The position numbers and the translations under genes were made by a program. This document shows positions 16,002 to 64,000 of a DNA stretch of 64,000 nt, one piece after another (the first letter of the stretch is position 1; the number at the start of each line of letters is the position of its first letter). Origin of the DNA: Candidatus Pacearchaeota archaeon (GTDB lineage: Archaea > Nanobdellota > Nanobdellia > Pacearchaeales > GW2011-AR1); the NCBI GenBank assembly GCA_041649295.1, contig JBAZNI010000002.1:141356-205355 (forward strand), read 5' to 3'. The notes beneath the pieces are model-generated. The model ran no database searches. It was not told the origin of the DNA and was given only the letters and a program-made list of their open reading frames with translations.

Positions 16002-17880
16002 AAAGGGAGAGTTTGATAAAAAGGGGCAAGTTACTATATTTATTATTATGGCAGTTGTAGTTGTTGCACTTATAGTTGGTTTTTTTGTTTTTAGAGATAG
16101 TATTTTTCCAGTAGATAATAAATCTGGATTTGCAGAAGTTTATAGCTTTTTTGATTCATGCATAGAGCAAAAAACAAGGCAGGGGTTGTCGATATCAGGT
16201 TATCAGGCAGGATATATAGAACTCCCTGAATTTAAGCCTGGAAGCGAGTATGCACCATTTTCTTCGCAACTAGATTTTGTTGGAAGTGGTGTGCCTTACT
16301 GGTTTTATCTTTCAAGTAACGGGGTTGTAAAAGAACAGGTTCCTTCTATGTCGCAGATTGAATCTCAGTTAGAAAATTATCTTAGTAATAAATTAAAAGA
16401 ATGCGATTTTTCAGATTTTAATAAAAGAGGAATTTTTGTTGAAGTTTCTGAAATGAATCCTAGTGTAAGAGTTAAAGATACAGAAGTTGCTGTTTCCATT
16501 ACTGGGAATTTAGTTGTTTCAGATAATGAGACAAGCTCAGTTAGAAAACACCATAGTGTAAATGTAAAAAGCAAGTTTGGCAAGTTTTATAATTTAGCAA
16601 GAGAAATTTATTCTAAAGAAACAAGCGAGGCGTTTTTAGAAAATTATGCAAGAGATGTTATGTATAATTATGCTCCTGTTACAGGTACAGAGATTTCATG
16701 CTCGCCTTTGATGTGGAATCCGCAAGAGGTTACAGAAGATATAATAAATGGGCTGTCTGCAAATATCGGAGCTTTGAAATTAGATGGAAGTTATTATGAT
16801 TTGAAAAATAAAGAGAATAAATATTTTGTAGTTGATATTAAAACTGATGATAGTGTTTCATTTATGTATAATCCTGACTGGCCAACTAAAATTGAAGTAT
16901 GGCCTGTTGAATCTGGAACAATGATTGCAGAGCCTGTTGGACTAGAACAAGGTATGGGGATACTGGGATTTTGTTATGTGCCTTATCATTTTGTTTATGA
17001 CATTTATTTTCCCACCTTAATTCAGATATACGATGATGATGAAATTTTCCAATTTCCTGTTGCAGTTCTTATTGATAAGAGTAAGCCAAGAAATGAGTTG
17101 TCTTTAGGTGAAATTAGTGAAATAGAAGGAACAATAGATGAAATCTGCAATTATAAGGAAAGTAAAATAGATGTTTATACTTATGACGCAGAAATTAATC
17201 CTGTTGAAGCATCTATTGATTTCCAGTGCCTGAATCAGAAATGTTATATTGGAAAAACACAAGTTGCAAATGGCGGAATTTTATCAACAGACTTCCCGCA
17301 GTGCGTTAATGCAAAAATTATTGCAAGAGCTGATGGGTATTTAACAAGTGAAAGGATATTCTCAACTAATTTGCCCGGACAGGTTGATTTGTTAATGGAC
17401 AAGCTGTATGAATTAACATTAGATGTTGAAATTGGAGGAAGAGAAGCAGGGGATAATTTGGTAGTTGTTAATTTCCAGAGCACTTCAAATACATTTAGTG
17501 TTATTTATCCGGATCAAAATAAGGTTAAATTAGCTGAAGGAGATTATAATATTAGTGTTCAGGTGTTTGGAAAATCTTCGTTATTTATTCCTGAAAGTTC
17601 AACAAGGCAATGTGTAGAAGTTCCTGCTCCAGGTTTGTTGTCTGGAATTTTTGGAAGAACTACAGAAAATTGCTTTGACATTACTCTTCCAAGCCAGAAT
17701 ATTGATAATGCTCTTGTTGCAGGCGGAAGATTAAATGAGTATATACTTGAATCTGAACTAAAAGGAAAAACAAGGGCTGAGATTAATGTGCCTGCACTTC
17801 CAACTCCAAATAGTTTAGAGCAGTTGCAGAAAAATTATGAACTAGTTAATACAAATAGTTTAGGATGGAATATTAAATGA
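15991..17880 (+). CDS. large extracellular protein with class III (prepilin-type) signal peptide
   Basis: N-terminus MLNKKGEFDKKGQ-VTIFIIMAVVVVALIVGFFVF has a KGQ cleavage-type motif followed by a hydrophobic helix. ATGA overlap with the downstream giant gene. Confidence 0.6.
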   Translation: MLNKKGEFDKKGQVTIFIIMAVVVVALIVGFFVFRDSIFPVDNKSGFAEVYSFFDSCIEQKTRQGLSISGYQAGYIELPEFKPGSEYAPFSSQLDFVGSGVPYWFYLSSNGVVKEQVPSMSQIESQLENYLSNKLKECDFSDFNKRGIFVEVSEMNPSVRVKDTEVAVSITGNLVVSDNETSSVRKHHSVNVKSKFGKFYNLAREIYSKETSEAFLENYARDVMYNYAPVTGTEISCSPLMWNPQEVTEDIINGLSANIGALKLDGSYYDLKNKENKYFVVDIKTDDSVSFMYNPDWPTKIEVWPVESGTMIAEPVGLEQGMGILGFCYVPYHFVYDIYFPTLIQIYDDDEIFQFPVAVLIDKSKPRNELSLGEISEIEGTIDEICNYKESKIDVYTYDAEINPVEASIDFQCLNQKCYIGKTQVANGGILSTDFPQCVNAKIIARADGYLTSERIFSTNLPGQVDLLMDKLYELTLDVEIGGREAGDNLVVVNFQSTSNTFSVIYPDQNKVKLAEGDYNISVQVFGKSSLFIPESSTRQCVEVPAPGLLSGIFGRTTENCFDITLPSQNIDNALVAGGRLNEYILESELKGKTRAEINVPALPTPNSLEQLQKNYELVNTNSLGWNIK

Positions 17881-20800
17881 AAATTAAATTATTTTTAGGA
17901 ATTGCATTTTTATTAGTTTTGACTTTAACAATTGTATCTGGAGCATCTACTTTTGAAGGGGATAAATACAATAGTTTTGGAGGAAGCAGTTACACTTATT
18001 CATCTCCACAATATACTCAACCAGGATTTATGGGAAGTGATTCAGGTTATTACGGGCTTTATCCTGGATATGACAGAGAAACATGCCAGGCAAGAATGGA
18101 CTTTTTAATTCAAATTGCTCCTGGAGGCTGCACTCCTGCAGTTGTAAGAAGTGATTTATTAGCTGAGCAAGATGTTGCTGTTTTCTGTAAATTGCAGGCA
18201 TTACAGATAAACCCATTTATTGATACTACTACTATTAGAAATTTAGTTATTACACATAGAGGAAATCTTCCTGAAGGTGTTTCTGGTGTAGGTTATCACC
18301 GCCCTCAAATAGCGCTTACTAATGGATATAATGAACAAGGATTTTTTACTTTGGATAATATTGGGTATGCTGTTATTAAAATAAAACAGCAGCCAGATGA
18401 AAGAAAATTACTTGATTCTGTTTCTGGAAATTTAACTATTAAGGTTCAGTATGATGCGTCTAATACTTTTGGAATGGGAAAGAGCGAGTTAATTTCTCCT
18501 GCACTTTCACTAGAAGAGTGGCAGGCAGATTACCCTAAATATGGAATTATGAACGGGCAGGTTTATTTAAGAGTAGAATCAATAGAAGAAGAAAATGTAA
18601 GAGTTTCTGTTTATAGGGATTTTAATACTAAAATTGATACTATTAATCTTAAAAGAGGAGAAACTTCTGCTGAGAAATATCTTTCAGGATTTAATTGCGC
18701 AGCTGCTTATACAATAAGTGTAGGAGATAGTATTGCTCCAAGACCTAAAGCTAAAATTAATTTTCAAGGAGATGTATATGATGTTTATCAAGGAGAGAAA
18801 TTTGCAGATGGAGTTTGTATCGTTGATAAGATTTCGCCAGGAGTTTTAGGAACAGGAAGTGTTACAGGAAAATGCTATAATAAACAATTTGTACTAAGGT
18901 TAAATCAAAAACCAGTTCAATTAGAAGTTGATGGCACTACAAAAGAAATTGCAGTTGGAAGCAAGATAAAAGAAGGAGTTTATTTAGCAGGTTCTGGCAT
19001 TTATCTTGATACAAAATTTGTTTTATTATTTAAGGGAGCAAGCTATGATTCTGCTTCAAAAATAACTGCTCAGAAAAATGTTGATTTAATAAAAAAACAA
19101 GGAACTAGTGTAGAATTAACTGATAAAGATAAATATGTTGTTCTTGTAATTGATGAATTGGGTATTGGTGGAAGTCAGATTAATAGTGGAATTAAATTTG
19201 TAGAGTTAAAAGTTGCAGATAACTTTGTTTCTGATAATCCTGATTTTGAAAATTCTTTTTCTTCTGCAATAGGTTATTATGAAGAAGTTGAGGATAATTA
19301 TGGAGAATTTGAAACTATGGATAATGAAAATTATGAGATTTATGGGGTTGTTGCTTTAGATGAAGCGAGTTCATTTGCAAGCAACGTGTGGAAAAAAGAA
19401 ACTGCTGTAGAACTTGCGCAAAAATTAAAAGATAAATATAATGTTGTTTCAAGTGTTCTTTTAACAGAAACTAATTTTGATTATTCTGAATCTGCTTCTG
19501 TTATTGATGTAAATGATTTAAGTTATAGTATTTCTTTAGAATCTGTTGATGAACCTGAAGAAAAAGATTACGCTGTTTTAATAGAAATTGATGGAGCTCT
19601 TGCGCCTCCTGTTAAGAGAGAAGGCACTGTATTATTTGATAATATTAAAGTTGATTCTTTTACAAATAAAGAAGTTAAAATAACTGGAAAATGTGCTGAT
19701 AAAGATGTTGGCGAGACATTGAAATTGGCAGAGACAAAAGAAATATGCGGGAAGATAATTTATGTAAAACAAATTAATTATAATTCTTATGCTAAGATTT
19801 CTTTTGAACCAATAACAAGAAGATTAGGAAGTGAAGTTAATATTAGTTATTCAATTGGAATTGAAAAAAGAGCAATAGAGCTTAATCCTGAAAAAGCTGC
19901 AGAGAGAATTAAAAAATTAAATGAGAGCATAGCAAAATGGACAAATATTAACAAGAATTTAGGAGATGTTGTTAAGACAATGAAAACAGCGTGCTTTGCA
20001 ACAACAGCTGCTTTGCAAGTTAAGAATTTGTTTGGAAATTTAGGAGGAAAAGCAATTGCAAGAAATTCTGTAATGACTTCTGATAATGGATGGAACCAGA
20101 AATGCACTGATATAGTTGCTGAAAATCCAAGTATAAGTTTTGATAAATGTATAAAAGATAATGCAGATAAAATTGAAAGTGATGTTGAAGCAAGATACAA
20201 AGCAATACAAGAAGTAAATAATGCAATAAAAGAAATTGAATCTAATTTGCCTGCACAAGACGGAATTCTTAATACAAAAGTAATTGATACAGAAGCTTCT
20301 TTAGATAAAACAATTAAAAATATTCAGTCTGAGTTTGGGAATGATGCTACCTATAAAGATAAAGTTGCAATGCTTAATAAAGAAACATTAAGTTATGATG
20401 AAGCAAGAGAAATCTGGGTTAATTTGAAACTGCAGAGAGAAAGTGCAAGTGAGGTTTTAAAGTTATCTTCTAAAACTTCTTTAGAGAATACATTCAAAAG
20501 CATAGAAGCTATTCAAAAAAGAGAAAGTGTTAAAGATAAATTAGAAGCAGGAAGTGTGACTGATAATTTTGTTTTTGGAACAATAGAAACAGACAAAAGT
20601 GCAAAAGTAATTCCTTATTCTGGTTCTGTTGCTGAAAAAGATTTAGTTAGTGGGGGGGTTATAATATCAAAAGGAAAACCTGTTGGAGGAGTAACTGTTG
20701 GAGCTTCTAACTATATGGTTGAACTAGTTAATACTGGAGAGAATAAATATAAAGTTGCTAAAGGTGATGATAATACTGCTCATATTTATGAAATAGGAGA

Positions 20801-23603
20801 TAGTGGCAATATTATTTCAGCTATTAAAACAGATAACCCTGTTTATGATGAGATTATTGCTTTATCTTTTCAGAAGTTTGATTCTACTTCGTATAATAAC
20901 AAGTGGAGCAGTCCTAAGGTTAGGTATTATGAAACAGGGGTGTATAAGGGAATGCCTGCTGTTGTTCCTGTTGATGCTAGCAAAGGTTGGTATGCTGGGA
21001 CAAAACCTGTTCTTGCTGGTTTTGGAGATTCAACAACATTCCAGGAATCTGGAAGAGTTTCAAGTTTCTGGGTTTGTAATGTTGGTGAAAATGGAAGAGA
21101 GCAGTTTAATTCAGGATTAGGAGATGATGTTTGTGAGCAGTTTAATGTTGGAACAGGACAGTCATTCAGCACTTTCCCTGGACTTTCTGAAGCAGATGCA
21201 AGTTCTATTATTAAACAGGCAATGGCTGCACTAGAAGATGCTGCAAGAAATTATAAATCTGGACTTAAGAAAGTAAGTATAAGGGGTAAAACTTATGATG
21301 TAGATGATCCTGCTGTTGCTATTTCAGGAACAAGGTGTACTGATTTTATGTCTGCTAGAGATTGTCAGATAATGTTTAATGTTTGTGACCCGGTTATATG
21401 TCCAAGTTCAAGATGTAATTTAGGAGGAAGTTATTATGTAGATGATGTTGTTCAGAGTGGAATTGTTGGGAGTATTTTCTTATGCCTTCCAAATTATAAA
21501 GAAGGAATTTTCATACCTGTTTGCCTTACAGGAATTCATGCAGGAATTGAAAACTGGATTTCAATAATGAGTGCGTCGAGAGATTGTTTGCAAGAATCAA
21601 TTGATAGTGGAAGATATGTTGGAATTTGTGATGAGATAACTGCAATTTACAAATGCGAATTTTTCTGGAAGCAGTTTTCTCCTTTAATGAATAATATTAT
21701 TCCTAAGTTATTAGAAAGGTTATCTGGAAATAGTGTTAGAGGAGGAGGAGAATATCTTAGTGTTCAGTCTGCGTGGGATAATATGCAGAGTTCTATTAAT
21801 TATTTCAAGAATGAATATGGAGTTAATGCAATGAAAGCATTTAGAGCTCGTTCAACAGATGAAGTTGGAACAGAAGTTTGCAAGTCATTTATTTCATTTA
21901 AATATGCAAATAAATTTGAGACTTTAATAGAGCCTGACTCGCCTTCACAATATAGTGCTTGGTTTACAGAAATTCAGCAGACAACTGCAACAATACCTGC
22001 AATTTCTCAATATAAAGTTTATTATCATATTTATGCAGGAAATGATGCTGGAATTTACTATTCTGTTTATTTGAAAAACAGAGCTGGAGAGACATTTTAT
22101 GATAATACTGGTTATCTTAATGTTGTTGCTTCGGGATATATAAACAAGGGAGAGTATGTTGATATTGCAAAAGACTTTACAGCACCTTCTGGTTTCAAGG
22201 AATTATGCATTAGAGTTAATGGACAAGATGATTGTGGTTTTAAACAAGTATCTACTTCATTTGCACTTAATTATCTTAGAGATAAATATGTTCAGAGTGA
22301 AGCAACTGAGCAAATTACTAAAGAAGATGACTGCATATCTGGAACGCCGAATGCAGCAGCTGTATTATTAACTCCAAATATTCAGGCAGGTGTTGAAGAA
22401 AGTATTAATACTAATATTTATGAAAGAGGAATTATAAGAGTTTGTTCTACTGAAAATCCTGGTTCAACAACAGAACCTTCACGATGGGAAAAAGTAGGTT
22501 ATTGCACTGATAGTAAAGTTGGATGCTGGTTAGATACAGAATCTATTAGCAATGCAATAACTTCTGGAAATGTAGGTGTTAAAGATGCAACACTTGCAGA
22601 AATTCAGGCACTTGTAGATGAGCAGAAACAAGAGGAAAAAGCTGGAAGAGTCTATACTGATTTAGAAATAGCAAATGCACTAACAGAAGTTAGAAATAAA
22701 ATTCCTAATGTAAAAACAGAAGAAGAAGCTAGTGATTTAATTGTAGAATTAGAAACAATTGAAAATTCTCCAAGTATACTTGTGGAAAAACAAAGAGCTG
22801 AAATAATATTCCTTAAGGCAAAAACTAAAAGAGCACTTAGTGAGCAGCTTTGGAAAGAAGTTCAGGCAGGATTAGCTGTTAAAAGAGTTAATGATTATGC
22901 AGCGACTGGAAAAGAAAATCCAGAGGCTCCTGCGACGCCAGAGACACCCGAGACGCCTGAGACACCTGTTGAAACAGGGCTAAATGACGAAGTTCCAGAA
23001 GTTTTACAACCTTTATTCTTAGAAGTCTCTGAAAAAACAGGAGTTCCAGCAGCATTAATAGCAGCAATTTCAAATCAAGAGTGTAGTGATCTTTGGGGTG
23101 ATGCTCAAACAGATCCAACAAAAATAATTGATTTAATAGATAATGATAAGATTCCTGCAAGCAGAGATATTTGTAATTACAATAATAAATACAATGTATT
23201 TGGCCCGATGCAATTTAGGATTGGTAAAGCGTATTTGAAAGAACATGGTATGGAAATTTATCAAACTACTCCTGATGGAAAACCAAATCCCAATGTTGGA
23301 ACATGGGAAGGTTATGTATCTAACACAGCAGAATTATTAGAAATTGATGAAGAAGCACTCAGCCCATTAATTATTCGACATTCAGTATATGCTGCTGCTA
23401 TAAAATTAAAAAAAGATGCGGGAAGTCCTACTGATTGGACAGAAGCAGAAATTAAAGAAGCTGCGAAAGGATATTTTGGGGCTTGTACAGCAGAACAGAC
23501 TATTGGCGGGAAAAAAGTTACAGTTAATTATTGCGATGATATTATTTCTAAATATAATAAGTATAAGGTATTAAAAGAATCTACTCCTTTTCTTATTGCT
23601 TAA
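17877..23603 (+). CDS. giant secreted protein (1908 aa) with C-terminal lytic-transglycosylase (SLT/GH23)-like domain
   Basis: Sec signal MKIKLFLGIAFLLVLTLTIVSGAS, a Cys-rich central region, a PEAPATPETPETPETP linker, then VPAALIAAISNQECS...GPMQF resembling the SLT E-S...G-L-M-Q core. Confidence 0.7.
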   Translation: MKIKLFLGIAFLLVLTLTIVSGASTFEGDKYNSFGGSSYTYSSPQYTQPGFMGSDSGYYGLYPGYDRETCQARMDFLIQIAPGGCTPAVVRSDLLAEQDVAVFCKLQALQINPFIDTTTIRNLVITHRGNLPEGVSGVGYHRPQIALTNGYNEQGFFTLDNIGYAVIKIKQQPDERKLLDSVSGNLTIKVQYDASNTFGMGKSELISPALSLEEWQADYPKYGIMNGQVYLRVESIEEENVRVSVYRDFNTKIDTINLKRGETSAEKYLSGFNCAAAYTISVGDSIAPRPKAKINFQGDVYDVYQGEKFADGVCIVDKISPGVLGTGSVTGKCYNKQFVLRLNQKPVQLEVDGTTKEIAVGSKIKEGVYLAGSGIYLDTKFVLLFKGASYDSASKITAQKNVDLIKKQGTSVELTDKDKYVVLVIDELGIGGSQINSGIKFVELKVADNFVSDNPDFENSFSSAIGYYEEVEDNYGEFETMDNENYEIYGVVALDEASSFASNVWKKETAVELAQKLKDKYNVVSSVLLTETNFDYSESASVIDVNDLSYSISLESVDEPEEKDYAVLIEIDGALAPPVKREGTVLFDNIKVDSFTNKEVKITGKCADKDVGETLKLAETKEICGKIIYVKQINYNSYAKISFEPITRRLGSEVNISYSIGIEKRAIELNPEKAAERIKKLNESIAKWTNINKNLGDVVKTMKTACFATTAALQVKNLFGNLGGKAIARNSVMTSDNGWNQKCTDIVAENPSISFDKCIKDNADKIESDVEARYKAIQEVNNAIKEIESNLPAQDGILNTKVIDTEASLDKTIKNIQSEFGNDATYKDKVAMLNKETLSYDEAREIWVNLKLQRESASEVLKLSSKTSLENTFKSIEAIQKRESVKDKLEAGSVTDNFVFGTIETDKSAKVIPYSGSVAEKDLVSGGVIISKGKPVGGVTVGASNYMVELVNTGENKYKVAKGDDNTAHIYEIGDSGNIISAIKTDNPVYDEIIALSFQKFDSTSYNNKWSSPKVRYYETGVYKGMPAVVPVDASKGWYAGTKPVLAGFGDSTTFQESGRVSSFWVCNVGENGREQFNSGLGDDVCEQFNVGTGQSFSTFPGLSEADASSIIKQAMAALEDAARNYKSGLKKVSIRGKTYDVDDPAVAISGTRCTDFMSARDCQIMFNVCDPVICPSSRCNLGGSYYVDDVVQSGIVGSIFLCLPNYKEGIFIPVCLTGIHAGIENWISIMSASRDCLQESIDSGRYVGICDEITAIYKCEFFWKQFSPLMNNIIPKLLERLSGNSVRGGGEYLSVQSAWDNMQSSINYFKNEYGVNAMKAFRARSTDEVGTEVCKSFISFKYANKFETLIEPDSPSQYSAWFTEIQQTTATIPAISQYKVYYHIYAGNDAGIYYSVYLKNRAGETFYDNTGYLNVVASGYINKGEYVDIAKDFTAPSGFKELCIRVNGQDDCGFKQVSTSFALNYLRDKYVQSEATEQITKEDDCISGTPNAAAVLLTPNIQAGVEESINTNIYERGIIRVCSTENPGSTTEPSRWEKVGYCTDSKVGCWLDTESISNAITSGNVGVKDATLAEIQALVDEQKQEEKAGRVYTDLEIANALTEVRNKIPNVKTEEEASDLIVELETIENSPSILVEKQRAEIIFLKAKTKRALSEQLWKEVQAGLAVKRVNDYAATGKENPEAPATPETPETPETPVETGLNDEVPEVLQPLFLEVSEKTGVPAALIAAISNQECSDLWGDAQTDPTKIIDLIDNDKIPASRDICNYNNKYNVFGPMQFRIGKAYLKEHGMEIYQTTPDGKPNPNVGTWEGYVSNTAELLEIDEEALSPLIIRHSVYAAAIKLKKDAGSPTDWTEAEIKEAAKGYFGACTAEQTIGGKKVTVNYCDDIISKYNKYKVLKESTPFLIA

Positions 23604-28500: not shown

Positions 28501-28634
28501 GCTCCCGTAGCTCAGCCTGGATAGAGCGATAGCCTTCTAGTGATGTGGGAAAACCTACGGTTTTCCTAACACTACCTTTCCCTTAAGGTAGAGAAGAAAG
28601 CTATAGGTCGCAGGTTCGAATCCTGTCGGGAGCA
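28501..28634 (+). tRNA. tRNA-Arg (anticodon TCT) with 59-nt intron after position 37
   Basis: Acceptor GCTCCCG/CGGGAGC, D-arm GCTC-AGCCTGGATA-GAGC, anticodon stem ATAGC/GCTAT, loop CTTCTA|intron 28540..28598|A, T-arm GCAGG-TTCGAAT-CCTGT. Confidence 0.85.
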
Positions 28635-28790
28635 TTAACGGATTCGAAGTGCTCATGAAGCAAAGCTTCCTGGCAACTTATATTCTGTGAATCTAAGTAA
28701 TCCTGTCGGGAGCATTAACGGATTCGAAGTGCTCATGAAGCAAAGCTTCCTGGCAACTTATATTCTGCGAATCTAAGTAATCTTGCAGGA
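28619..28790 (+). repeat. two tandem 80-nt units (tRNA-Arg 3' end plus 64-nt module) and a degenerate third start
   Basis: Units 28619..28698 and 28699..28778 differ at one position (CTGTGAATC versus CTGCGAATC). Each begins with AATCCTGTCGGGAGCA; a third AATCTTGCAGGA start at 28779 is degenerate. Confidence 0.85.
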
Positions 28791-40920: not shown

Positions 40921-41676
40921 ATGGAAGTAATAGAAATACAAGACATAAAAACGCGGGTAGGAGTTGCATCTACTGTTAGGGCTAATGATTTAATTCCAGT
41001 TTATGTTGAGGGTGTTAAAAGATTTTTAAGAGATAATCTATCTATGGGAGAGGAATGGGTTAAAACTGCTAGAGGCAGATTATATAACTTTTCTGGAAAA
41101 AGTGGAGAGGGGGATATTCTTGGTTCAAGTGCAGATATGGGTGTTGCTATTGCAACATTTTTCCCAGAATTTCCTTTAATTACTGGACAACAGCTTTTAA
41201 GACTATATTTAAAAATAGGGAATAAAAATCCTTCTGGACATGTTTATATTGATTTTGGTGTTCAAATTAATGGCAAACCAAGATTTAACCAAATTCAAGC
41301 AGAAATACTTTTAAAAGATTTTAAATCAAGAGGGATAGATGTTGGAGAGGGGAGAGTTCCAGATTTTAATCAGCTAAGGTTAGTAGCAGATGAAAATTGT
41401 GGATTAGCTTATAGATTAGCAGAAGATGTCATAGCAGAGAATATTGTTGCTGTTTCAGCGTATCCATTTGGAACTAGAGTTGGTAAAGATGGATTGTTCG
41501 GGGCTTATCTTGACGGGGATGGTAGCTGGTACGCTATTGTTGGGGGCTTGCCTAGCTCTGGCTCCGTTGGTCAGATGGTTCGTTATGACACCAAAGGCGT
41601 CGTGCCAAAAAAATTAGACACCTCTAGCGATAATTTGGTGGATAAACTAACACGAGATTTCATTAAAAGATTTTAG
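40921..41676 (+). CDS. hypothetical protein, paralogue of 55809..56612, with A-depleted hypervariable-looking C-terminal patch
   Basis: 251 aa, no signal peptide. Collinear similarity to the 267-aa protein (ILGSS/ITGSS, LRLVADENCGLAYRL/HRLDGNFPYGVAISL, G.dG..W patch, TSSDNL/TSADLL tail). Confidence 0.5.
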   Translation: MEVIEIQDIKTRVGVASTVRANDLIPVYVEGVKRFLRDNLSMGEEWVKTARGRLYNFSGKSGEGDILGSSADMGVAIATFFPEFPLITGQQLLRLYLKIGNKNPSGHVYIDFGVQINGKPRFNQIQAEILLKDFKSRGIDVGEGRVPDFNQLRLVADENCGLAYRLAEDVIAENIVAVSAYPFGTRVGKDGLFGAYLDGDGSWYAIVGGLPSSGSVGQMVRYDTKGVVPKKLDTSSDNLVDKLTRDFIKRF

Positions 41677-41962
41677 AAATATTTTTAAGTTTTCTTTTTT
41701 TATTAATATTCCTAACCATCTGGTTAGGCCACACGTCAGTTTATTAAGACATTATTTGAGTTTATCTTAAATTATTAAGAAAAATAAATGTTAGGAATAT
41801 GGAAAATAAAATTAAACAATTTACAAAAGGACAAATTAGCTTAAAAAGTTATTATATAATTTTTAAGGTGGGCAGGCATATTCAATGTGGGCAGATACAT
41901 ATAATCTAAGGAATATATTCACAAAACAAATGATTTAAATATTTCTGTTTATGATGTTTATT

Positions 41963-55808: not shown

Positions 55809-56612
55809 ATGTTGGATAAAATTTTAAACACAGCAGAGGACTTAGTAATAATCGGCAAGTCAGGAACAAAAGGCAAATATGTTTTTGCTTTTCCACTAGA
55901 AGGAAAAGTTGCAAAACACTATTTTGATAAAACTCTTGCAGATGGAGAAGAAAGAAACGTAGCTGGTTTTAAAGAGTACTGGCAATTTGATGATAAAACA
56001 GGATTAATAACTGGCTCAAGCACTTTTTTAGCTTTAAGACTTGATGAAGCAGTTAGAGCAGATGGTTTTTGGATACCAGATATAGAAGAAGCATTATTTT
56101 TAGATAAAGAAAGAAGATTAACAAATGGAGTTTACAGAGATTATGGATTAGCTGTTTTTAATGATGGGGGACCTAATCAAAAAGTGGCAAATGAAATTAT
56201 TAGTAAATCTGGGAATAGAGACCTGCCATTAATTATCCCTTTTAAAGATATGACCCACAGACTAGATGGAAATTTCCCTTATGGTGTTGCAATTTCTTTA
56301 GTTGATAATCCTTCTGGATTAAAATCAGGAGAACAAGCGCAGAAAATTTTAAGCAGGTCTAATTATGTTGGAGATTCTGGGGCGTGCGGGGTTTGTCGCT
56401 ACAGGGGTGGCGATTGGCTTGCTAGCTTGGACGAGTTAGGCGTCTCTGGCTCCTGTGGTCGGGGGGATTTTTTGTGTGGCGAAGCCACAAGCGCTGATTT
56501 GTTAAGTGCCCATGATGGTTTACTTGAGAGGGAATATAACACTAAATTAATTCAATTGCAAGAAGAAAGAGAGGAAAGAGAAAAAAGTTTTTTAGAATCT
56601 TTTAAAAAATAA
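55809..56612 (+). CDS. hypothetical protein, paralogue of 40921..41676, with A-depleted hypervariable-looking C-terminal patch
   Basis: 267 aa, no signal peptide. The patch encodes GDSGACGVCRYRGGDWLASLDELGVSGSCGRGDFLCGE using codons rare elsewhere in the window. Confidence 0.5.
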   Translation: MLDKILNTAEDLVIIGKSGTKGKYVFAFPLEGKVAKHYFDKTLADGEERNVAGFKEYWQFDDKTGLITGSSTFLALRLDEAVRADGFWIPDIEEALFLDKERRLTNGVYRDYGLAVFNDGGPNQKVANEIISKSGNRDLPLIIPFKDMTHRLDGNFPYGVAISLVDNPSGLKSGEQAQKILSRSNYVGDSGACGVCRYRGGDWLASLDELGVSGSCGRGDFLCGEATSADLLSAHDGLLEREYNTKLIQLQEEREEREKSFLESFKK

Positions 56613-56639
56613 GTATATAAGCAATTTGCAGATTTTATT

Positions 56640-56981
56640 TTAGCCTAATTCGTCAAGTTTTCTCTGTATTTCTCTTAACTGTGATTCAATGTCAGAATCT
56701 TCTTTTAAATCCCTTTTTTGTTTTACCTGTACCTGGATTTTTTTTGCTTCTTCAATTTTATGGGTTGTTGGGACTTCTTTTAGGAGTTCAAAGATTGCTT
56801 CTTTTATTTCTGATATTTCATTTTTTAATTTTATCTTAAGCATAATTTCTTTTTTTCTTAATAATCTGTATTCCTTTAATCTTTTTATTGTTGCAAGTAT
56901 CTCTGCTTCAGTTTTCAATATTTCTTTTCTAATTTGCACTGCTTCAGAATAACCAATTTTTGCATAAACAGGTTCATCCAT
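56640..56981 (-). CDS. coiled-coil protein
   Basis: 113 aa with heptad-like Glu/Lys/Ile-rich sequence. Co-oriented 4 nt after the upstream gene. Confidence 0.45.
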   Translation of the reverse strand: MDEPVYAKIGYSEAVQIRKEILKTEAEILATIKRLKEYRLLRKKEIMLKIKLKNEISEIKEAIFELLKEVPTTHKIEEAKKIQVQVKQKRDLKEDSDIESQLREIQRKLDELG

Positions 56982-56985
56982 TTTC

Positions 56986-57633
56986 TTAAACTTTTGTGAA
57001 TAAATCTTGATCTATTTTTTCAAGATTTGATTTAATAATTTCTAATTCCCCTTCCCATTGACTTAATTCTCTTTCTTCACTTGATTTAAGCTCTTTAATC
57101 CCCTTTAAAGTAAAATCTAGTTCAGAAAGCTTTATTTTTATTTCGTTAAATTTTGAAATTGCTTTTTCAAATTTGTCAAGCTTAACAAACAGCTGTTCTT
57201 GCCCCCTTATTTTTTGGGCAAACTGGAATGTTTCTTTTTGATTCCCATCAGATTCAAAATTACTGATTCTTCTTTCCGGATTTGGGTGAATCATTAAAGA
57301 ACCAACTGTTTTGTGACTTGGCAACTCTTCTATTTCTTTTGTTCTGCTTCCAATTGCAGAATATTTTTTAAACTGCTCCGGGGGTTTTGGAGATTCTATA
57401 AATTCGCTTTCTTCATTTATAGCCTGTTTTATTGTATTTTGGTTAATTTCATCCCCTAAGTTTGATTTTGGGAATTTTGGCAATGCAGGAAGATAATCAG
57501 AGGGTTCCTGATCTTCTTCATATTCTGTCTCATCTTTTGGCAATGCAGGAATTTTAGGATATTCTCTTGAACTTGGCAATGCAGGAAGAGTTTCTATTTC
57601 ATCCCCCCTCTTTTTTTTCCAAAATAAGCCCAT
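56986..57633 (-). CDS. protein with three (L/I)PALP repeats and a C-terminal coiled coil
   Basis: 215 aa. LPALPSS, IPALPKD and LPALPKF are each encoded by the same 14-mer; the C-terminal half is helical. Confidence 0.45.
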   Translation of the reverse strand: MGLFWKKKRGDEIETLPALPSSREYPKIPALPKDETEYEEDQEPSDYLPALPKFPKSNLGDEINQNTIKQAINEESEFIESPKPPEQFKKYSAIGSRTKEIEELPSHKTVGSLMIHPNPERRISNFESDGNQKETFQFAQKIRGQEQLFVKLDKFEKAISKFNEIKIKLSELDFTLKGIKELKSSEERELSQWEGELEIIKSNLEKIDQDLFTKV

Positions 57634-57752
57634 ATTATATTTCTCTTTTATATATTATAATATTGTATAAACTATCGCTATGTTTAAAAATCTATCTATA
57701 TGTTTTTACATGCAATAGATGAATTTTTAAACTTATTTTTTGTTAATAGTTT

Positions 57753-58553
57753 ATGGCTAATGATAAGGCAAATATTTCTGTAAAAGATGTTAAAACAGAA
57801 TTTCTTAGAGAGATTGCTTTATCTATTGCAGGAAAAAATGCAGGGGCAATGGTTGATTTGCTTATCGGAAAGGAAAATGTGAATGAATTTATTATTGCAA
57901 AAAAACTTGGGTTGACAATAAATCAGGTTAGGAATATCCTGTATAAACTATCTGATGAGGGGCTTGTTTCTTTTATAAGAAAAAAGGACAAGAAAAAAGG
58001 GTGGTATACATATTTTTGGACATTTGACGATGATAAATCTCTTTCTTTGCTGAAAAAAAGTTTATTGGATGAAATTTCCCGGCTACAAGGTCAGCTAAAA
58101 AGCAGGGAAATTAAACAGTTTTATATTTGTAAAACCTGCAATGTTGAATTGACAGAAGAGAATGCCATGCTTCATGATTTTACATGCCCTGAATGTGGAG
58201 AGATTTATGGGGCTTCTGACAGCTCTTCAGCAATCAGCGAGATAGAATCAAGCATTAATAAACTTCGAAAAAGACTTGAAAAAATAGATTTTGAGCTTAA
58301 TATTATAAAAATTGAAAAAGAAAAGAAAGCAGTAAAACGTGCAGTAAAAGCAGAAAGAGCAGCTAAAGAACTAAGAAAACAGAAAAGAGATGAAAGAGCT
58401 GCAAAAAAGATAAGGGAAAATGTGCAGATTAAAAAGATTCATAAGGTAAATTTTAGAAAGAAGCAGACAAAATACAAGGTTATTAAAAAGGCAAAAAAAT
58501 CTCCAAAAAAATCTGCCCTTAAAAACCGCAAAAAACAGCAGAGAAAAAAATAA
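57753..58553 (+). CDS. tfe: transcription factor E (TFE-alpha, TFIIE-alpha homologue) with Lys-rich tail
   Basis: A winged helix (EFIIAKKLGLTINQVRNILYKLSDEGLVSF), the Zn-ribbon CKTCN...CPECG, and a long basic C-terminal extension. Confidence 0.8.
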   Translation: MANDKANISVKDVKTEFLREIALSIAGKNAGAMVDLLIGKENVNEFIIAKKLGLTINQVRNILYKLSDEGLVSFIRKKDKKKGWYTYFWTFDDDKSLSLLKKSLLDEISRLQGQLKSREIKQFYICKTCNVELTEENAMLHDFTCPECGEIYGASDSSSAISEIESSINKLRKRLEKIDFELNIIKIEKEKKAVKRAVKAERAAKELRKQKRDERAAKKIRENVQIKKIHKVNFRKKQTKYKVIKKAKKSPKKSALKNRKKQQRKK

Positions 58554-58576
58554 AAAATTAAGATAATAATCAAAAA

Positions 58577-59326
58577 ATGGGCGAAAATCTTAGAATCTAT
58601 ACAAAAAGAAATCTTAAACATGGTTTTTTTGAAAAATTTTTGTATAATTTTTCTGTAACAAAACAGATAATAACCGCAAACATTATTTTATTTATACTTT
58701 TTACTACTTTGCTGACTATTAATTCGGGTTTTATAGATTATATTGCTCTCAAACCAAGCGATGTTGCTGGGGGAAAATATCTTTGGACATTTGCAACAAG
58801 TATGTTTATGCATGCTCCTGCAGCATTAATATTTCCATTCAGTCTGCTTTCGTTCCACCTTTTAATTAATATGTTTGTTCTTATTTCACTTGGAAGTTTT
58901 TGTGAAAAAATAATTGGTAGAAAGAGGTTTTTATGGTTTTATATTATTGCAGGGTTAGTCTCGGGAGCAGTATTTGTTCTACTTTCTGTGTTTTTTGCAA
59001 ATTTTCCTTTTTGGGAAAAAGTTTTTGGAAGTCCTGAAATTGCAGGAGTTGGTGCGAGTGGAGCAATATTTGCTGTTGCTGGACTGCTTATGGTGTTAAT
59101 TCCAAAATTGAAATTTACAGTAATCTTTTTCCCATTTTTTTCACTTCCTGCTTATGTAATGATTCCTTTAGTTTTATTTGCAACTTGGGGGGTTTCAGCA
59201 GCAAGCGGGCTGCCTGTTGGAAATACAGCCCATTTCGGAGGATTTTTAACCGGGGTTATTTACGGAGTTTATCTTAGAAAAAAATATTCAAAAAAAATTA
59301 AAATATTAAACAGGTATATTGGATGA
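58577..59326 (+). CDS. rhomboid-family intramembrane serine protease
   Basis: Multi-TM protein with HLLINM, the catalytic GASGAIFAV, and AHFGGFLTG. Confidence 0.8.
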   Translation: MGENLRIYTKRNLKHGFFEKFLYNFSVTKQIITANIILFILFTTLLTINSGFIDYIALKPSDVAGGKYLWTFATSMFMHAPAALIFPFSLLSFHLLINMFVLISLGSFCEKIIGRKRFLWFYIIAGLVSGAVFVLLSVFFANFPFWEKVFGSPEIAGVGASGAIFAVAGLLMVLIPKLKFTVIFFPFFSLPAYVMIPLVLFATWGVSAASGLPVGNTAHFGGFLTGVIYGVYLRKKYSKKIKILNRYIG

Positions 59327-60090
59327 TAAGAAGAAAGAAGCGCATTGAAAGAGGCAAAGATTTTTTTGGCATCAGAAAAAAGTATTTTGAAAGTTTTAAA
59401 TTTTTAAAATCAATTGATAACTATCTTGCAATGTCTTTTGCGCTGTTTTTATTTTTATTTGCTTTTGGGTTTTTGGCGTTTTTTATACTGCCTGATTCTA
59501 TTTTAAATTATCTTCTTGAGTTTGTTTCGAAATGGATTAAAGAACTGTTAGAACAGACAGAAGGAAAGGGATTTTTTGAAATGTGGTGGTACATATTTGC
59601 GAATAATCTTAGTATAGGTTTTTTTTCAGCGTTTTTAGGAATTTTCTTAGGGATACCTACTTTGTTTTTTCTCTTTTTTAACGGAGCAGGTATTGGGTTT
59701 GTTTCAGGAATTGTTGCTAATGAAGAAAATCTGATAAGCTTATTAACTTTGCTTCCTCACGGGGTATTTGAAATTCCAGCAATACTTATTTCGTTTGCTT
59801 TGGGAATTAAGCTGGGATACTCCCCAATTTTAAGGCTTATTAAGACATATTATAAAAATGCAGATGATTTTTTAATTGCGCTCTTTTTTATTTTGCTGTT
59901 TCCGCTGATTGTTATTTTTAGTCTTCCTTTATTTATTATTGCTGCTGTGTTTACTATGAATAACTTTAGTTTAAGAAAAAAATTTCTTCATGATTTAGCA
60001 AGCTCAATTCAAGTATTTTTTCTTATTGTTGCCCCTTTATTTATAATTGCAGCAATAATTGAAAGCGCCTTGATTGTCTTTTGGAGTTAA
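59323..60090 (+). CDS. SpoIIM-like (DUF95) membrane protein
   Basis: IFANNLSIGFF, FFNGAGIGFV and LLPHGVFEIPAILISFALG are typical of the family. ATGA overlap with the rhomboid gene. Confidence 0.6.
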   Translation: MIRRKKRIERGKDFFGIRKKYFESFKFLKSIDNYLAMSFALFLFLFAFGFLAFFILPDSILNYLLEFVSKWIKELLEQTEGKGFFEMWWYIFANNLSIGFFSAFLGIFLGIPTLFFLFFNGAGIGFVSGIVANEENLISLLTLLPHGVFEIPAILISFALGIKLGYSPILRLIKTYYKNADDFLIALFFILLFPLIVIFSLPLFIIAAVFTMNNFSLRKKFLHDLASSIQVFFLIVAPLFIIAAIIESALIVFWS

Positions 60091-60277
60091 CAAATAATTT
60101 ATGTAATAATCCATAACAACCTTGTTTATGTTTTTTAATACTGATAGGAGAATATTTACTTTTTATTTTAGTTTATTATTTATTCTTAACCCTAAACATT
60201 AATGATAGATTTTCTTCACATTAACCTTTTATTTTTAGTACAATAATATTTATAAATGATTAAATCCAGGAGAAATT

Positions 60278-60622
60278 ATGGAGATTAGAGAATCTGGATT
60301 ATGGTGGATGGTAAAAAATCCTTATCAATTAGACACTAATCATACTATTTTATTAGCACGTGACTTTAAAAATGGTGGTGTGTCTGAGGAGGGATTTACT
60401 AGAGAAGAAGTAAAACAAATTGTGCCTCAAGTAGAGAAAATGTTTAGACGTTGTTTTTATAAAAGATCGTATGGGTATACATTAGTAACTGTTAATGGAG
60501 AACAATTTTATGTTTGTGTAGATGAATCATCGGTTAGAATTCCTCAAGGATCAAATATGAAGGGAATTAGAACTTCAAATGACAATGAAATTCCTACATT
60601 TGAACGTGGACTAAAAGATTAA
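60278..60622 (+). CDS. hypothetical protein
   Basis: 114-aa ORF with a TATA-like element upstream. No motif recognised. Confidence 0.35.
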   Translation: MEIRESGLWWMVKNPYQLDTNHTILLARDFKNGGVSEEGFTREEVKQIVPQVEKMFRRCFYKRSYGYTLVTVNGEQFYVCVDESSVRIPQGSNMKGIRTSNDNEIPTFERGLKD

Positions 60623-61728
60623 AACCACTCTTTTAGTCTTTTTTGCTTTCCAAACTGACTTAATAAAACTGAATTATTTGTGTAATGTTCTATTGGGATA
60701 GTTAATCGTTTTTGGATGTCGTTGAGAGCTTCTTTTAGTGTTTGAAATTTACTAAAGGGCTGTTTAAACGCGCCTCTTGCATTTTCTCTCAAGATTCCTA
60801 CCCCTAACGGAACATCATAAGTTGGAAGAACTTCTCTGAAAAATATACAGGAACACTGGCGATTTATTTTTATTAGATATTCACACAATGCAAGGCGGTT
60901 TGCATAATAAGCTCCTGTAACATTTGCTGCGTAGTTTTTTCTTCTGTAAAAACCTTCATAATCTTTCCATATTCCTAAATCTTTTGTAGAAATTTCTATA
61001 ACTTCAAATGAAAATTTATCAGGTAATAGCAGGATTTCATAATGATTTCCCAAGTATTCTGAATTAAACACCTGAAAATCGTTAATCTCATTAAAAAAGC
61101 GAATTTTTTTAAGCATTTCTTTTGAAAGAGTATCATCAACAGCAGTTATTGCCCATTTTGTTGGAACTAGTTTTCTGTTTTCTTTTAAACCTAAGAGTCC
61201 TGCTGAAAGAATCTTTATGATATTGCTTACCTCTAATTTATAATTATACAATTCTTTTATCCCCTCTGCTGATTTTAGTTTTGTATCTGATGAAATATAG
61301 TCTGCTTTTGGATGTATTTTGGGGTTTTCCTCTAAGTTTATATCTTCTAATGGTGCAGGATTTCCAATAATTGGGACAGAAAACTCTTTTATCTCATAAC
61401 TTGCTGGAGATTTTTGGAGGAAAAATTCTGCAGAAACAGATTTTCTTGCAAGTGCTACTTGGTTTAATGCAGAAGTTAGTTTAGTAATTTTTTTTGGCTT
61501 TATATCTGCTTTAAATCTTGCATAAAGCAGTTGTTTTCTGTAATTAATAATTTCTTTCATAGAAGCATTTTTTTCATACCATTTTTCAGGAGAGGAAAAA
61601 TCTTCTGTATCTCCAGATTTAACAGGGGACAATATTCCTGCATAAACTTTTGGGTACCCTTCTCTCCCTATAAATATCTCTGGAGGAGTGCTTCCTTTAA
61701 ATTGTTTTTTGTTAAGAAATTCTTCCAT
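60619..61728 (-). CDS. Nre-family putative DNA repair protein
   Basis: N-terminal FKGSTPPEIFIGREGYPKVYAGILSP and the overall length fit archaeal Nre (DUF650/651) proteins. Confidence 0.7.
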   Translation of the reverse strand: MEEFLNKKQFKGSTPPEIFIGREGYPKVYAGILSPVKSGDTEDFSSPEKWYEKNASMKEIINYRKQLLYARFKADIKPKKITKLTSALNQVALARKSVSAEFFLQKSPASYEIKEFSVPIIGNPAPLEDINLEENPKIHPKADYISSDTKLKSAEGIKELYNYKLEVSNIIKILSAGLLGLKENRKLVPTKWAITAVDDTLSKEMLKKIRFFNEINDFQVFNSEYLGNHYEILLLPDKFSFEVIEISTKDLGIWKDYEGFYRRKNYAANVTGAYYANRLALCEYLIKINRQCSCIFFREVLPTYDVPLGVGILRENARGAFKQPFSKFQTLKEALNDIQKRLTIPIEHYTNNSVLLSQFGKQKRLKEWF

Positions 61729-61823
61729 AAATATTATTATGATTTTATATCTGTTTTCTTTTATTCAAAAATATCTAAAGCGTTAATACACTTTTTTTCA
61801 TTAGATTTAGGTATTTTATGGAA

Positions 61824-62021
61824 CTAATTCTTTAAATCACTTATTCCAAGCATTAGAAATAAAAGTCCTATCATTATTATGAACCAGACTATTCCCCCTT
61901 TAAGGAATTCCCATGCTGCTGTTCCAAAATTCCAGAATCCCAGATTTTGAGTGTATGCCCATAAAAATATTGCAACTACAATCAAAATCAGTCCTGCCAA
62001 AATTTCAAGCCATTTATTCAT
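61824..62021 (-). CDS. small membrane protein
   Basis: 65 aa with two TM helices. Confidence 0.4.
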   Translation of the reverse strand: MNKWLEILAGLILIVVAIFLWAYTQNLGFWNFGTAAWEFLKGGIVWFIIMIGLLFLMLGISDLKN

Positions 62022-62277
62022 ATAATATTATTATTTTCTGCATTTAAAAAGATATTTATAATAGACAAGATATTTCATTTACTTTTTAATTTATTTAGCA
62101 ACCCTTTTTTTTCTCATTTTTTAGTTTATATAACTGTTATGAAATCTTGTATAAACTGTATGTTGTCTTGGATTGCTTTGGCATTGCAGACCCTTTAATG
62201 TATATAATCTAGCAATTAACTTCAAAGAGTATTGAAGTCTTCAAATTATTTATAAAGGTGGTTTGCTATTGGTTTGT

Positions 62278-64000
62278 ATGAAAAAATTACAATTGCTTAA
62301 TGTATTGCTGATTGTTTGTATAGCAATATTTGCAATTCTTGTATTTAGCATTTTTCAGCAACAACCTGATTCTGGAACTGAGAAAATCAATAAATTTAAT
62401 TCTTATAAAGAGCTGGCTGAATTTGTGAATAAATCGAGTTCTTCTTATTATAGCTATTATGGCAGAGAAGGTATAGGAGGCATGGAAATACCTAATGCAG
62501 TTATGGAGGAGAAAGACAGCAGTTCTGAATCTGGCGGAGCAGGGGATTATTCTGCCACTAATATACAAGTAGAGGGTGTTGATGAGCCAGATATTGTAAA
62601 AAATGACGGAAAATATATTTATGCTGTTTCTGGAAATAAAGTATTCATTATTAATGCTTATCCTGCAGAATCTATGGAAATTATTTCTGAAATAAATTTA
62701 AACAAAAGTGTTAGTAATATATTTATTAATGGAAATAAATTAGTGATTTTTTCAAATGGGCATAATTATATTCCTTATGTTGCAGATTGTGCTGTTGATA
62801 GTGCTGGAATGATGAAGGACTGCGGAGGTTATTCAGAGTCTTCAACTATTGCCTCTGTTTATGATATATCTGACAAAGAAAATCCAGAACTTGAAGATGA
62901 ATTTTCTTCAGATGGTTATTATGTTGATGCAAGAATGATTGATAAATATGTTTACTTAATTTCTTCAAAATACATTTATACAGACAATATTTTTATGCCA
63001 AGTTTTTCAGCTAATGGTATTAAAGAAACTGTTTCTGCAAGTGATGTGTACTATTTTGGATATTCAGATAATAATTATGTATTTAATTCAATTATGGCAA
63101 TAAACTTAGATAATGGAGAGTATGAAAGCAAAGTCTATCTCACAGGGGGTTCAACTTCTTTGTATGTTTCTGAAAATAGTATTTATTTTACTACTATTAA
63201 ATCTATAGGTTATCATGAGATTATAGATAAGAGGATTGAAGAAGTTTATTTTGAAATACTTCCCAACTCTGAAATATCAGAAATAAAAAATATTCTTGAT
63301 TCAGATGAAGAAGATTATAAAAAATACAATAAAATTGAGGAAATTATATATGAATATTCTAATTCATTAACTGGAGAGGAAAAAGATAAATTTGATTCTG
63401 ACTTAAAGGATAAAATAGAAGAATTTCAGATTAAAATTTCTAAAGAATTAGAAAAGACAATTGTGCATAAAGTAAGCATTGATGGAAGTGAGATTAATTA
63501 TAAAGGAAGTGGAGAAGTTCCTGGGCAAGTTTTGAATCAGTTTTCAATGGACGAGTACCGGGGAAATTTTAGAATTGCAACTACTACTGGCAATACTTGG
63601 AGCGAAACAAGCTATAACCACCTCTATGTTTTAGATGAAGATTTAAAGATAATTGGAAAAATTGAAGATTTAGCTAAAGGTGAAAGAATTTATTCTGTTC
63701 GTTTCTTGGGAAGCAAGGCATATATGGTTACATTTAGGCAGGTGGACCCTTTATACGTAATTGATTTATCTGATTCTGAAAACCCTGAAGTTTTGGGTTA
63801 TCTTAAGGTAACAGGATATTCGAGTTATCTTCATCCTTATGACGAAAATCATATAATTGGTGTGGGAATGGAGGCAAATGAACAGGGAAGAACTCAAGGG
63901 ATGAAAATCGCTTTGTTTGATGTTTCTGATTTTGAAAATCCAAAGGAAATGAGCAAATATGAAGTTGAAGGGGTGTGGAGTTATTCGCCTGCGTTATATG
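62278..64000 (+). CDS. secreted beta-propeller domain protein (Beta_propel family), 3'-truncated by the window edge
   Basis: Hand translation from ATG 62278: MKKLQLLNVLLIVCIAIFAILVF...DYSATNIQVEGVDEPDIVKNDGKYIYAVSGNKVFIINAYP...FRQVDPLYVIDLSD. Absent from the ORF track because it has no stop in the window. Confidence 0.75.
   Translation, partial: MKKLQLLNVLLIVCIAIFAILVFSIFQQQPDSGTEKINKFNSYKELAEFVNKSSSSYYSYYGREGIGGMEIPNAVMEEKDSSSESGGAGDYSATNIQVEGVDEPDIVKNDGKYIYAVSGNKVFIINAYPAESMEIISEINLNKSVSNIFINGNKLVIFSNGHNYIPYVADCAVDSAGMMKDCGGYSESSTIASVYDISDKENPELEDEFSSDGYYVDARMIDKYVYLISSKYIYTDNIFMPSFSANGIKETVSASDVYYFGYSDNNYVFNSIMAINLDNGEYESKVYLTGGSTSLYVSENSIYFTTIKSIGYHEIIDKRIEEVYFEILPNSEISEIKNILDSDEEDYKKYNKIEEIIYEYSNSLTGEEKDKFDSDLKDKIEEFQIKISKELEKTIVHKVSIDGSEINYKGSGEVPGQVLNQFSMDEYRGNFRIATTTGNTWSETSYNHLYVLDEDLKIIGKIEDLAKGERIYSVRFLGSKAYMVTFRQVDPLYVIDLSDSENPEVLGYLKVTGYSSYLHPYDENHIIGVGMEANEQGRTQGMKIALFDVSDFENPKEMSKYEVEGVWSYSPALY

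Follow-up and report, generated by a model that had tools for sequence, protein, structure and literature searches.

A short, adenine-poor and GC-rich patch near the 3' end of an AT-rich archaeal gene is, judged by homology, the variable region (VR) of a target gene of a diversity-generating retroelement (DGR). The gene lies in a stretch of 64 kb of Candidatus Pacearchaeota DNA, the whole of which is referred to here as the window, and encodes a protein of 251 amino acids. A template repeat (TR) and a reverse transcriptase (RT) were demonstrably once present in cis and were then deleted, leaving recognisable remnants behind. We consider it probable that the patch is a DGR VR together with an adjoining invariant, hairpin-forming segment, that its cis TR and RT have been deleted, and that the VR is now frozen. 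The mechanism is well known, and the locus is an unannotated target family caught after the loss of its cis machinery. The features on which this reading is built are collected in Table 1.

Table 1. Positions of the target genes, variable regions, hairpins and cassette remnants in the window, and of the intact cassette beyond its end.
Feature	Position	Strand	Evidence
Gene of 251-aa DGR variable (target) protein, intact ORF	40921..41676	+	homology to genes adjoining TR and RT
VR by homology, 85 nt (residues 192-219, LFGAYLDGDGSWYAIVGGLPSSGSVGQM, and first base of next codon)	41494..41578	+	homology to TRs of orthologous cassettes
Invariant post-VR segment (IMH-like, encodes VRYDTKGVV)	41579..41606	+	codon-aligned comparison, 11 loci
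Post-VR hairpin TGACACC-AAA-GGCGTCG	41586-41602	+	folding of 11 loci
Target-TR spacer remnant (5' part)	41708..41770	+	blastn, 82-89% identity to L001, L008 and L009 spacers
Spacer hairpin CCTAACCA-TC-TGGTTAGG	41711-41728	+	alignment of 8 spacers
TATA-like element TTTATTAA	41740-41747	+	within spacer remnant
Deletion junction GTTTATCTTAA	41760-41770	+	3' end of spacer remnant
RT 3'-end pseudogene remnant (~RT residues 283-336 of ~345), frameshift and in-frame stop	41762..41914	+	tblastn, blastn
VR2 of 267-aa protein (gene 55809-56612)	about 56379-56461	+	best placement of L014 TR at 56379
Hairpin TGTGGC-GAA-GCCACA of 267-aa gene	56475-56489	+	folding
Intact DGR: 203-aa target, TR-B (about 5640 to 5548), RT-B (343 aa)	L010:4494-6412 (~65.3-67.2 kb in window numbering)	minus	

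The patch stands out first by its composition. A base count over 41482-41606 gives 20 A in 125 nt (16%) and a GC content of 54.4%, against 34% A and 34% GC in the rest of the ORF and 32.4% A and 31% GC over the whole window; 125-nt segments with 20 A or fewer make up just 1% of those in the window, and most of them fall on the non-coding strand of minus-strand genes. A first-pass annotation had put the content at about 20 A in 125 nt (about 16%), which the recount reproduces exactly, and had listed a set of codons and the peptide GKDGLFGAYLDGDGSWYAIVGGLPSSGSVGQMVRYDTKGVVP, all of which are present in the patch. Its contrast in codon usage is equally real, with C-ending codons taking 12 of 42 positions in the patch (29%) and 11 of 209 in the remaining gene (5%; Fisher p = 3.8e-5), and with CGT as the single arginine codon of the patch while AGA is used 11 times elsewhere. 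Glycine accounts for 10 of the 42 patch codons. When every ORF of at least 100 aa was scanned in 28-codon windows with a score combining low A and C-ending codons, this patch and 56379-56462 were the top outliers, two presumed shadow frames aside: comparable or higher scores were reached only at 62461-62544 (minus) and 61600-61683 (plus), both of which lie opposite long ORFs and which we take to be such frames. The surrounding genes are archaeal and include those for Alba, S17e, a tRNA-splicing endonuclease and TFIIE.

The product of the gene is identical to WC533_04730, a 'hypothetical protein' encoded on a 206,804 bp contig of a Candidatus Pacearchaeota MAG, and has no sequence match in Pfam, NCBIfam or the PDB. 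Its 42 homologues all derive from metagenomes or DPANN MAGs, and the genomic contexts of these relatives place the protein. In five of six homologue contexts (L001, L004, L005, L008 and L009) the order is target, TR and RT, with an RVT_1 RT of ~345 aa located 260-650 nt 3' of the homologue and, directly 5' of each RT start, a repeat of 82-85 nt of the target's variable stretch. These TRs are rich in AAY codons and are 85 nt long in L001, L008 and L009. The sixth context (L006/L007) holds an RT truncated to 154 aa, which shows that the same cassette decays elsewhere in nature. The Pfam lists for the neighbourhoods of L001, L004, L005, L008, L009 and L010 show no Avd-like gene.

Differences between VR and TR that are confined to adenines are the defining signature of DGRs, and the relatives carry it without exception. 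Across eight VR/TR pairs, taken from the five loci with the complete order (family A), from L010 (family B) and, twice, from L014 (the 267-aa family), 116 of 116 mismatches fall at TR adenines, so that 116 of 194 adenines and none of 477 other bases are changed. The protein alignment carries the same imprint. A conserved body is followed in the 42 homologues by the stretch VGKNGLFRAYLxxxGxWxAxxxxLxxSxDxGRVVRYDAEGV, where invariant columns are interleaved with columns of 7-12 residue types corresponding to the NNY-codon set. The hypervariable columns coincide with TR codons bearing A at position 1 or 2, for which the mean column entropy is 2.21 bits, as against 0.64 bits elsewhere.

Compared with these heterologous TRs, the VR of the window gene shows the expected bias. 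It contains 11% A, whereas the 85-nt TRs of L001, L008 and L009 contain 30-32% (24-32% over the six TRs compared). When the L008 TR is placed along the whole window its best site is position 41494, and there 19 of 27 TR adenines differ from the VR but only 8 of 58 non-A positions do (Fisher p = 4e-7); over the heterologous TRs the enrichment of changes at A ranges from p = 4e-7 to 6e-5. Codons that are AAC or AAT in the TR appear in the VR as GAC, GAT, AGC, ATT, GGC, TCC, GTT and others, and the NNC codons of the patch exist because the AAC and AAT codons of the TR were changed. The VR sits near the 3' end of the ORF (residues 192-219 of 251) and is followed by the invariant segment with its hairpin. 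The suggestion of the first-pass annotation that the patch is a targeted hypervariable region is thus borne out by homology to genes that are flanked by TR and RT and whose VR/TR differences are at A only. It follows that A depletion and NNC codons spotted by eye in an AT-rich gene can flag a VR even where TR and RT are missing.

The 3' part of the patch is GC-rich because of the invariant hairpin segment at 41579-41606. In families A and B the consensus hairpin is CGACGCC-GAA-GGCGTCG, and each of the 11 loci has its hairpin at the same distance of 9 nt from the VR end; the stems of the 267-aa family, TGTGGC-GAA-GCCACA and GTGTTGC-GAA-GCAACAC, carry compensatory changes. The copy in the window has one stem mismatch, one G.T pair and an altered loop, amounting to three G/C-to-A/T changes relative to the consensus. 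It can still fold, at -7.0 kcal/mol, and the hairpin of the intact cassette L004 is no better. It corresponds to the hairpin or cruciform known from DNA downstream of DGR VRs, an analogue of which has been reported inside a coding extension for archaeal AvpA (PMC5006420).

What sets the locus apart from its relatives is found downstream of the target gene. No TR-like copy of the VR was detected on either strand of the 64-kb window by a repeat search, by blastn-short or by a scan in which mismatches at TR adenines were free, and none matching the VR was found in the 7.7 kb past the window end, where TR-B does not match. No RT gene was found in the window when ORFs of 150 aa or more were screened for YxDD, and tblastn detected a remnant only. 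The sole ORF flagged by the screen, of 1908 aa (17877-23600) and containing YVDD, has no Pfam match and was rejected as an RT. With no linked RT gene and no matching TR, the locus does not hold a complete functional cassette.

Remnants of that cassette are nevertheless legible. The 274-nt gap between the target gene and leuS opens with a spacer remnant reading ATTCCTAACCATCTGGTTAGGCCACACGTCAGTTTATTAAGACATTATT..GTTTATCTTAA, in which CCACACGTCAG stands 3' of the spacer hairpin and 5' of the TATA-like element. An alignment of 8 spacers reveals invariant columns and, in L010B and L014, a compensatory change of the hairpin from A-T to G-C, and we infer that the remnant represents the promoter or a 5' element of the former TR-RT transcript. 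Directly beyond it, tblastn with the L010 RT (RT-B) aligns 41763-41840 and 41849-41914 (E = 1.5e-5 each, 46-64% identity) with RT-B residues 286-311 and 315-336, the two segments being in different frames with a stop between them, and blastn to RT 3' ends covers 41762-41909 with E = 1.5e-18. In L008 the microhomology TTTAYYTTAA occurs in the spacer as TTTACTTTAA and in the RT as TTATTTTAA, at the corresponding points. The spacer remnant is joined to the RT 3' remnant at this same motif, and therefore ~1.08 kb was deleted between short direct repeats, a stretch that in L008 spans what remains of the spacer, the complete TR and RT codons 1-282. The locus documents base by base the death of a DGR cassette through a microhomology deletion that its target gene survived. 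The view that any mutagenic machinery would have to act in trans on this gene does not hold for its history, as a TR and an RT of its own formerly stood in cis with the gene, and remnants of both spacer and RT remain.

An intact DGR lies close by. An ENA contig (L010), found via the window protein at 60622-61728 (minus) and 99.89% identical to window positions 56026-64000, joins the end of the window contig to the beginning of the 565-kb contig of the MAG, and carries the DGR ~1.3-3.2 kb past the window end, ~24 kb downstream of the VR of the 251-aa gene. TR-B differs from its own VR at 14 positions, all of them adenines; this is exactly the one VR that it has, and nothing in the window matches it. 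RT-B has the motifs YVDD and GNLTSQ, is ~65% identical to the family-A RTs, and is MFA5019465.1 of the same MAG; it is identical in NCBI, JGI and ENA, while the exact 203-aa protein is recorded from ENA only. The 203-aa target and the 251-aa protein belong to the same superfamily (hhalign 96.3%). The first-pass annotation had named the absence of any DGR components from the genome as evidence that would speak against it; the intact cassette in L010, with its RT recorded from the same MAG, shows that such components are present.

Four other accounts of the patch can be weighed against a frozen VR. That it is unrelated to retro-mutagenesis, being instead a Gly/Ser-rich or constrained segment or else acquired or gene-converted GC-rich DNA, is very unlikely. 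Its many glycine codons do raise GC, and the post-VR part is GC-rich through the conserved hairpin and not through mutagenesis, but synonymous choice shifts too (in the C-ending codons and in CGT for AGA), the differences from orthologous TRs are adenine-specific, the orthologous loci possess TR and RT with A-only mismatches throughout, and spacer and RT remnants flank the 251-aa gene itself; no RNA-family or foreign-DNA signal was found. Lower still, and close to negligible, is the chance that the intact neighbour, TR-B with RT-B, diversifies this VR. Its proximity in an ENA assembly from a 99.9%-identical strain, and the kinship of its 203-aa target, whose post-VR hairpin and GGCAGRRTGG end of the VR are also those of the 251-aa gene, are set against a best placement of TR-B in the window with 31 of 64 non-A positions mismatched, which is random level and which moreover falls at VR2 of the 267-aa gene and not at the VR of the 251-aa gene (VR1). 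The codons after the conserved TGG also differ in number (11 vs 15), and TR-B already has a perfect VR of its own, and only one. TR-B and RT-B would appear to serve their own 203-aa target and to be incapable of templating the VR of the 251-aa gene.

More weight attaches to a VR that is still live and diversified in trans, from a matching TR elsewhere in the genome, perhaps on its own or next to a further paralogue, and by an RT such as RT-B, with the retained post-VR segment and hairpin guiding homing, although we judge this unlikely as well. At least one intact DGR is present in the genome, its RT being close to those of family A; remote DGR targets are known (PMC8144416); a paralogue of the 267-aa family on another contig of the same MAG indicates that DGR-target families are dispersed; the ORF, post-VR segment and hairpin of the 251-aa gene are retained; and the TR search covered ~72 kb (the 64-kb window and 7.7 kb beyond) of a genome that is 770 kb or larger. 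A pattern derived from 41494-41578 in which each base may be itself or A (WWRWWMRRRRMWWAWMWWRAMRRRRAWRRWARMWRRWAMRMWAWWRWWRRRRRMWWRMMWARMWMWRRMWMMRWWRRWMARAWRR) describes the TR that would be required, and a degenerate VR-derived pattern with conserved positions fixed had no match in genome and metagenome contig collections from which the source VR itself is absent. Among the best 120 of 6981 RT protein matches none was identifiable as WC533. Against a live VR stand the demonstrable deletion of its cis TR and RT, the unrelated sequence and other length of TR-B as the sole TR within reach, the lack of a second family-A protein labelled from the MAG among the 42 homologues, the three G/C-to-A/T changes in the window hairpin, and a VR that is identical in three assemblies while a flanking site varies. 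These assemblies are the NCBI/JGI MAG, ENA ERZ27247363 (L012) and Logan SRR8542065 (L013). Over 20.8 kb of L012 and 4.2 kb of L013, the differences from the window are a 9-nt poly-T indel and a single SNP in the gene, at 41234 (S105F), which is not in the VR; the Logan contig crosses the VR without a break. The three may go back to one sample or to related ones, a weakness in the case for stasis, and consensus assemblies mask minority variants. The narrower proposal that the VR is rewritten in trans from an unlinked TR using another cassette's RT is more doubtful again; if true, it would mean that, once individual cassettes have decayed, DPANN genomes share one RT, or a few, among scattered targets and TRs.

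A frozen relic is the most likely state of the locus because its TR and RT are deleted, the neighbouring TR does not match, and the VR shows no differences among assemblies. As comparison with relatives shows, in this family a DGR-type RT copies the TR RNA with misincorporation opposite adenines, and the cDNA replaces the VR, converting AAC and AAT to NNC and NNT, so that A is lost and C-ending codons are gained in an AT-rich gene. The ~1.08 kb deletion between TTTAYYTTAA repeats removed the TR together with RT codons 1-282 and fused the spacer to what is now a decayed RT end. Under the reading of a frozen VR, the sequence would since have stayed as the last round of diversification left it, with the protein working at a single fixed specificity. 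The intact ORF and a VR still at 54% GC may mean that the loss was recent, or that the VR is still being refreshed.

The second outlier of the composition scan belongs to a gene for a protein of 267 aa, a member of a second, distinct but homologous DGR-target family. This family is DGR-linked elsewhere: in L014 an RT and a single TR accompany two targets in tandem, and the mismatches are at A only. No TR or RT adjoins the 267-aa gene within the window. The first-pass annotation had regarded the two window proteins as paralogues, and they are indeed homologous, but only distantly so (hhalign 96.9%, 23% identity). It had further described conserved flanks around a divergent patch, and here the relationship is reversed: BLASTP finds similarity in the patch only (E = 0.025), which is thus the most similar part, and the flanks are related at the profile level only. 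The possibility that VR1 and VR2 share a single TR was rejected, as they are identical at 49 of 85 positions and each is nearer to the TR of a different family. On the MAG's 565-kb contig, WC533_00625 is an 83%-identical paralogue of the 267-aa protein that differs from it at VR or hypervariable positions.

In the ENA and Logan assemblies, contigs break off within the 267-aa gene or shortly past it. A reading of these breaks as a sign of hypervariability at VR2 was rejected, since VR2 is identical in L010 and the mismatches lie at 56166-56258; the breaks are probably due to the paralogue, 83% identical, that the genome also carries. The window and L010 differ at 9 positions, all within these 93 nt, upstream of VR2 and near a contig end, and the cluster may be a chimeric join with paralogue sequence.

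Prediction of the structure of the 251-aa protein with AF2 from a 34-sequence alignment gave a confident model (pLDDT 80.9, pTM 0.82), for which Foldseek against PDB and BFVD returned nothing with E < 0.7. The weak and insignificant matches include the C-type lectins CD23 (2h2r_A, TMt 0.36), EMBP (9dkz) and MBP-C (1bv4_A), and AvpA, Mtd and TvpA are absent from the PDB and BFVD matches. The protein may plausibly have a C-type lectin fold. The protein is probably a ligand-binding surface or adhesion protein with one fixed specificity. At position 41234 the window has C (Ser105), whereas two near-identical assemblies have T (Phe105), and Phe is nearly invariant in the family, within an NPFG motif; Ser105 is either a consensus error of the MAG or a substitution at a conserved residue of an orphaned target.

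DGRs of DPANN archaea have been described previously (PMC4372165), as have internal VRs and coding-region hairpins for archaeal AvpA (PMC5006420) and remote targets and inactive DGRs (PMC8144416). The closest parallels to the present locus are the AvpA-type DGRs of Nanoarchaeota and other DPANN archaea (Paul et al. 2015, PMC4372165; Handa et al. 2016, PMC5006420), with which it and its relatives share a DPANN host, a target of ~250 aa, the order target-TR-RT, a VR of ~28 codons near but not at the C-terminus, a TR rich in AAY codons, an invariant strand whose coding sequence directly follows the VR, and a hairpin or cruciform in the coding extension. Nevertheless, no resemblance in sequence was detected between the 251-aa protein and AvpA or any chain in the PDB, the AvpA motifs GxxVVVYAH, HPxxxPFxG and RFxGV are not seen in it, the C-type lectin matches of its model are insignificant, and TR and RT are deleted here, all of which are departures from AvpA-type systems.

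The prototype DGR, that of the Bordetella phage BPP-1 (Mtd/TR/Brt), offers a further comparison. In both, the changes from TR to VR are A-specific, AAY codons occur, the VR occupies the 3' end of its target and is closely followed by a GC-rich segment and a hairpin whose loop is of the GAA(A) type, and the RT has a GxxxSQ motif (GNLTSQ in RT-B). Unlike in BPP-1, no Avd gene was seen in the flanks of the cassettes examined, the host is a cellular archaeon, the TR follows a conserved spacer of 130-270 nt and stands ~25 nt before the start of the RT, and the homology between VR and TR ends abruptly at TGG, with no long IMH/IMH* pair. In having a VR-like target away from an RT and no VR polymorphism across samples, the locus resembles the inactive or degenerate DGRs and remote targets of Roux et al. 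2021 (PMC8144416), but it differs from them in that the loss can be reconstructed base by base and the orphan state results from deletion and not from remote targeting.

While these findings leave the understanding of DGRs unchanged, they are useful for annotation and for the study of DGR turnover in DPANN archaea. They reveal an unannotated DGR-target superfamily in Pacearchaeota, with at least four members in the source genome (251, 267, 274 and 203 aa), that shares a spacer or promoter-like element and a covarying post-VR hairpin.

Several further observations were made in passing. The first ~80 nt 3' of the target are conserved across three target families (spacers of L001, L004, L005, L008, L009, L010 and L014, and window positions 41708-41770), with a hairpin CCTARCCA..TGGYTRGG that carries a compensatory change, GGCCACA and the TATA-like TTTATTAA, and more structured segments precede the TR; this conserved spacer is probably a promoter together with the 5' part of the DGR RNA. 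At L001:10757-10967 and L008:7562-7790, right after the stop codon, the first ~50 nt and last ~55 nt of the target are repeated around a run of N, which may represent a second tandem target whose interior was not assembled (L014 likewise has two targets in tandem), or else an artefact of scaffolding brought about by heterogeneity of the VR. The 1908-aa ORF (+ strand) has a GC-rich, T-poor stretch at ~22831-23053, near its C-terminus. An element of ~64 nt (TTCGAAGTGCTCATGAAGCARARCTTCCTGGCAAMTTATATTCT...) occurs 3' of tRNA-Gln (838-989) and of an intron-containing tRNA at 28501-28634 (28501-28790), with the tRNA 3' end (AATCCTGKCGGG...) repeated at the boundary of every copy; at the second site there are two copies in tandem, 99% identical. 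These tRNA-adjoining elements may be remnants of insertion or attachment sites, or an unknown small RNA.
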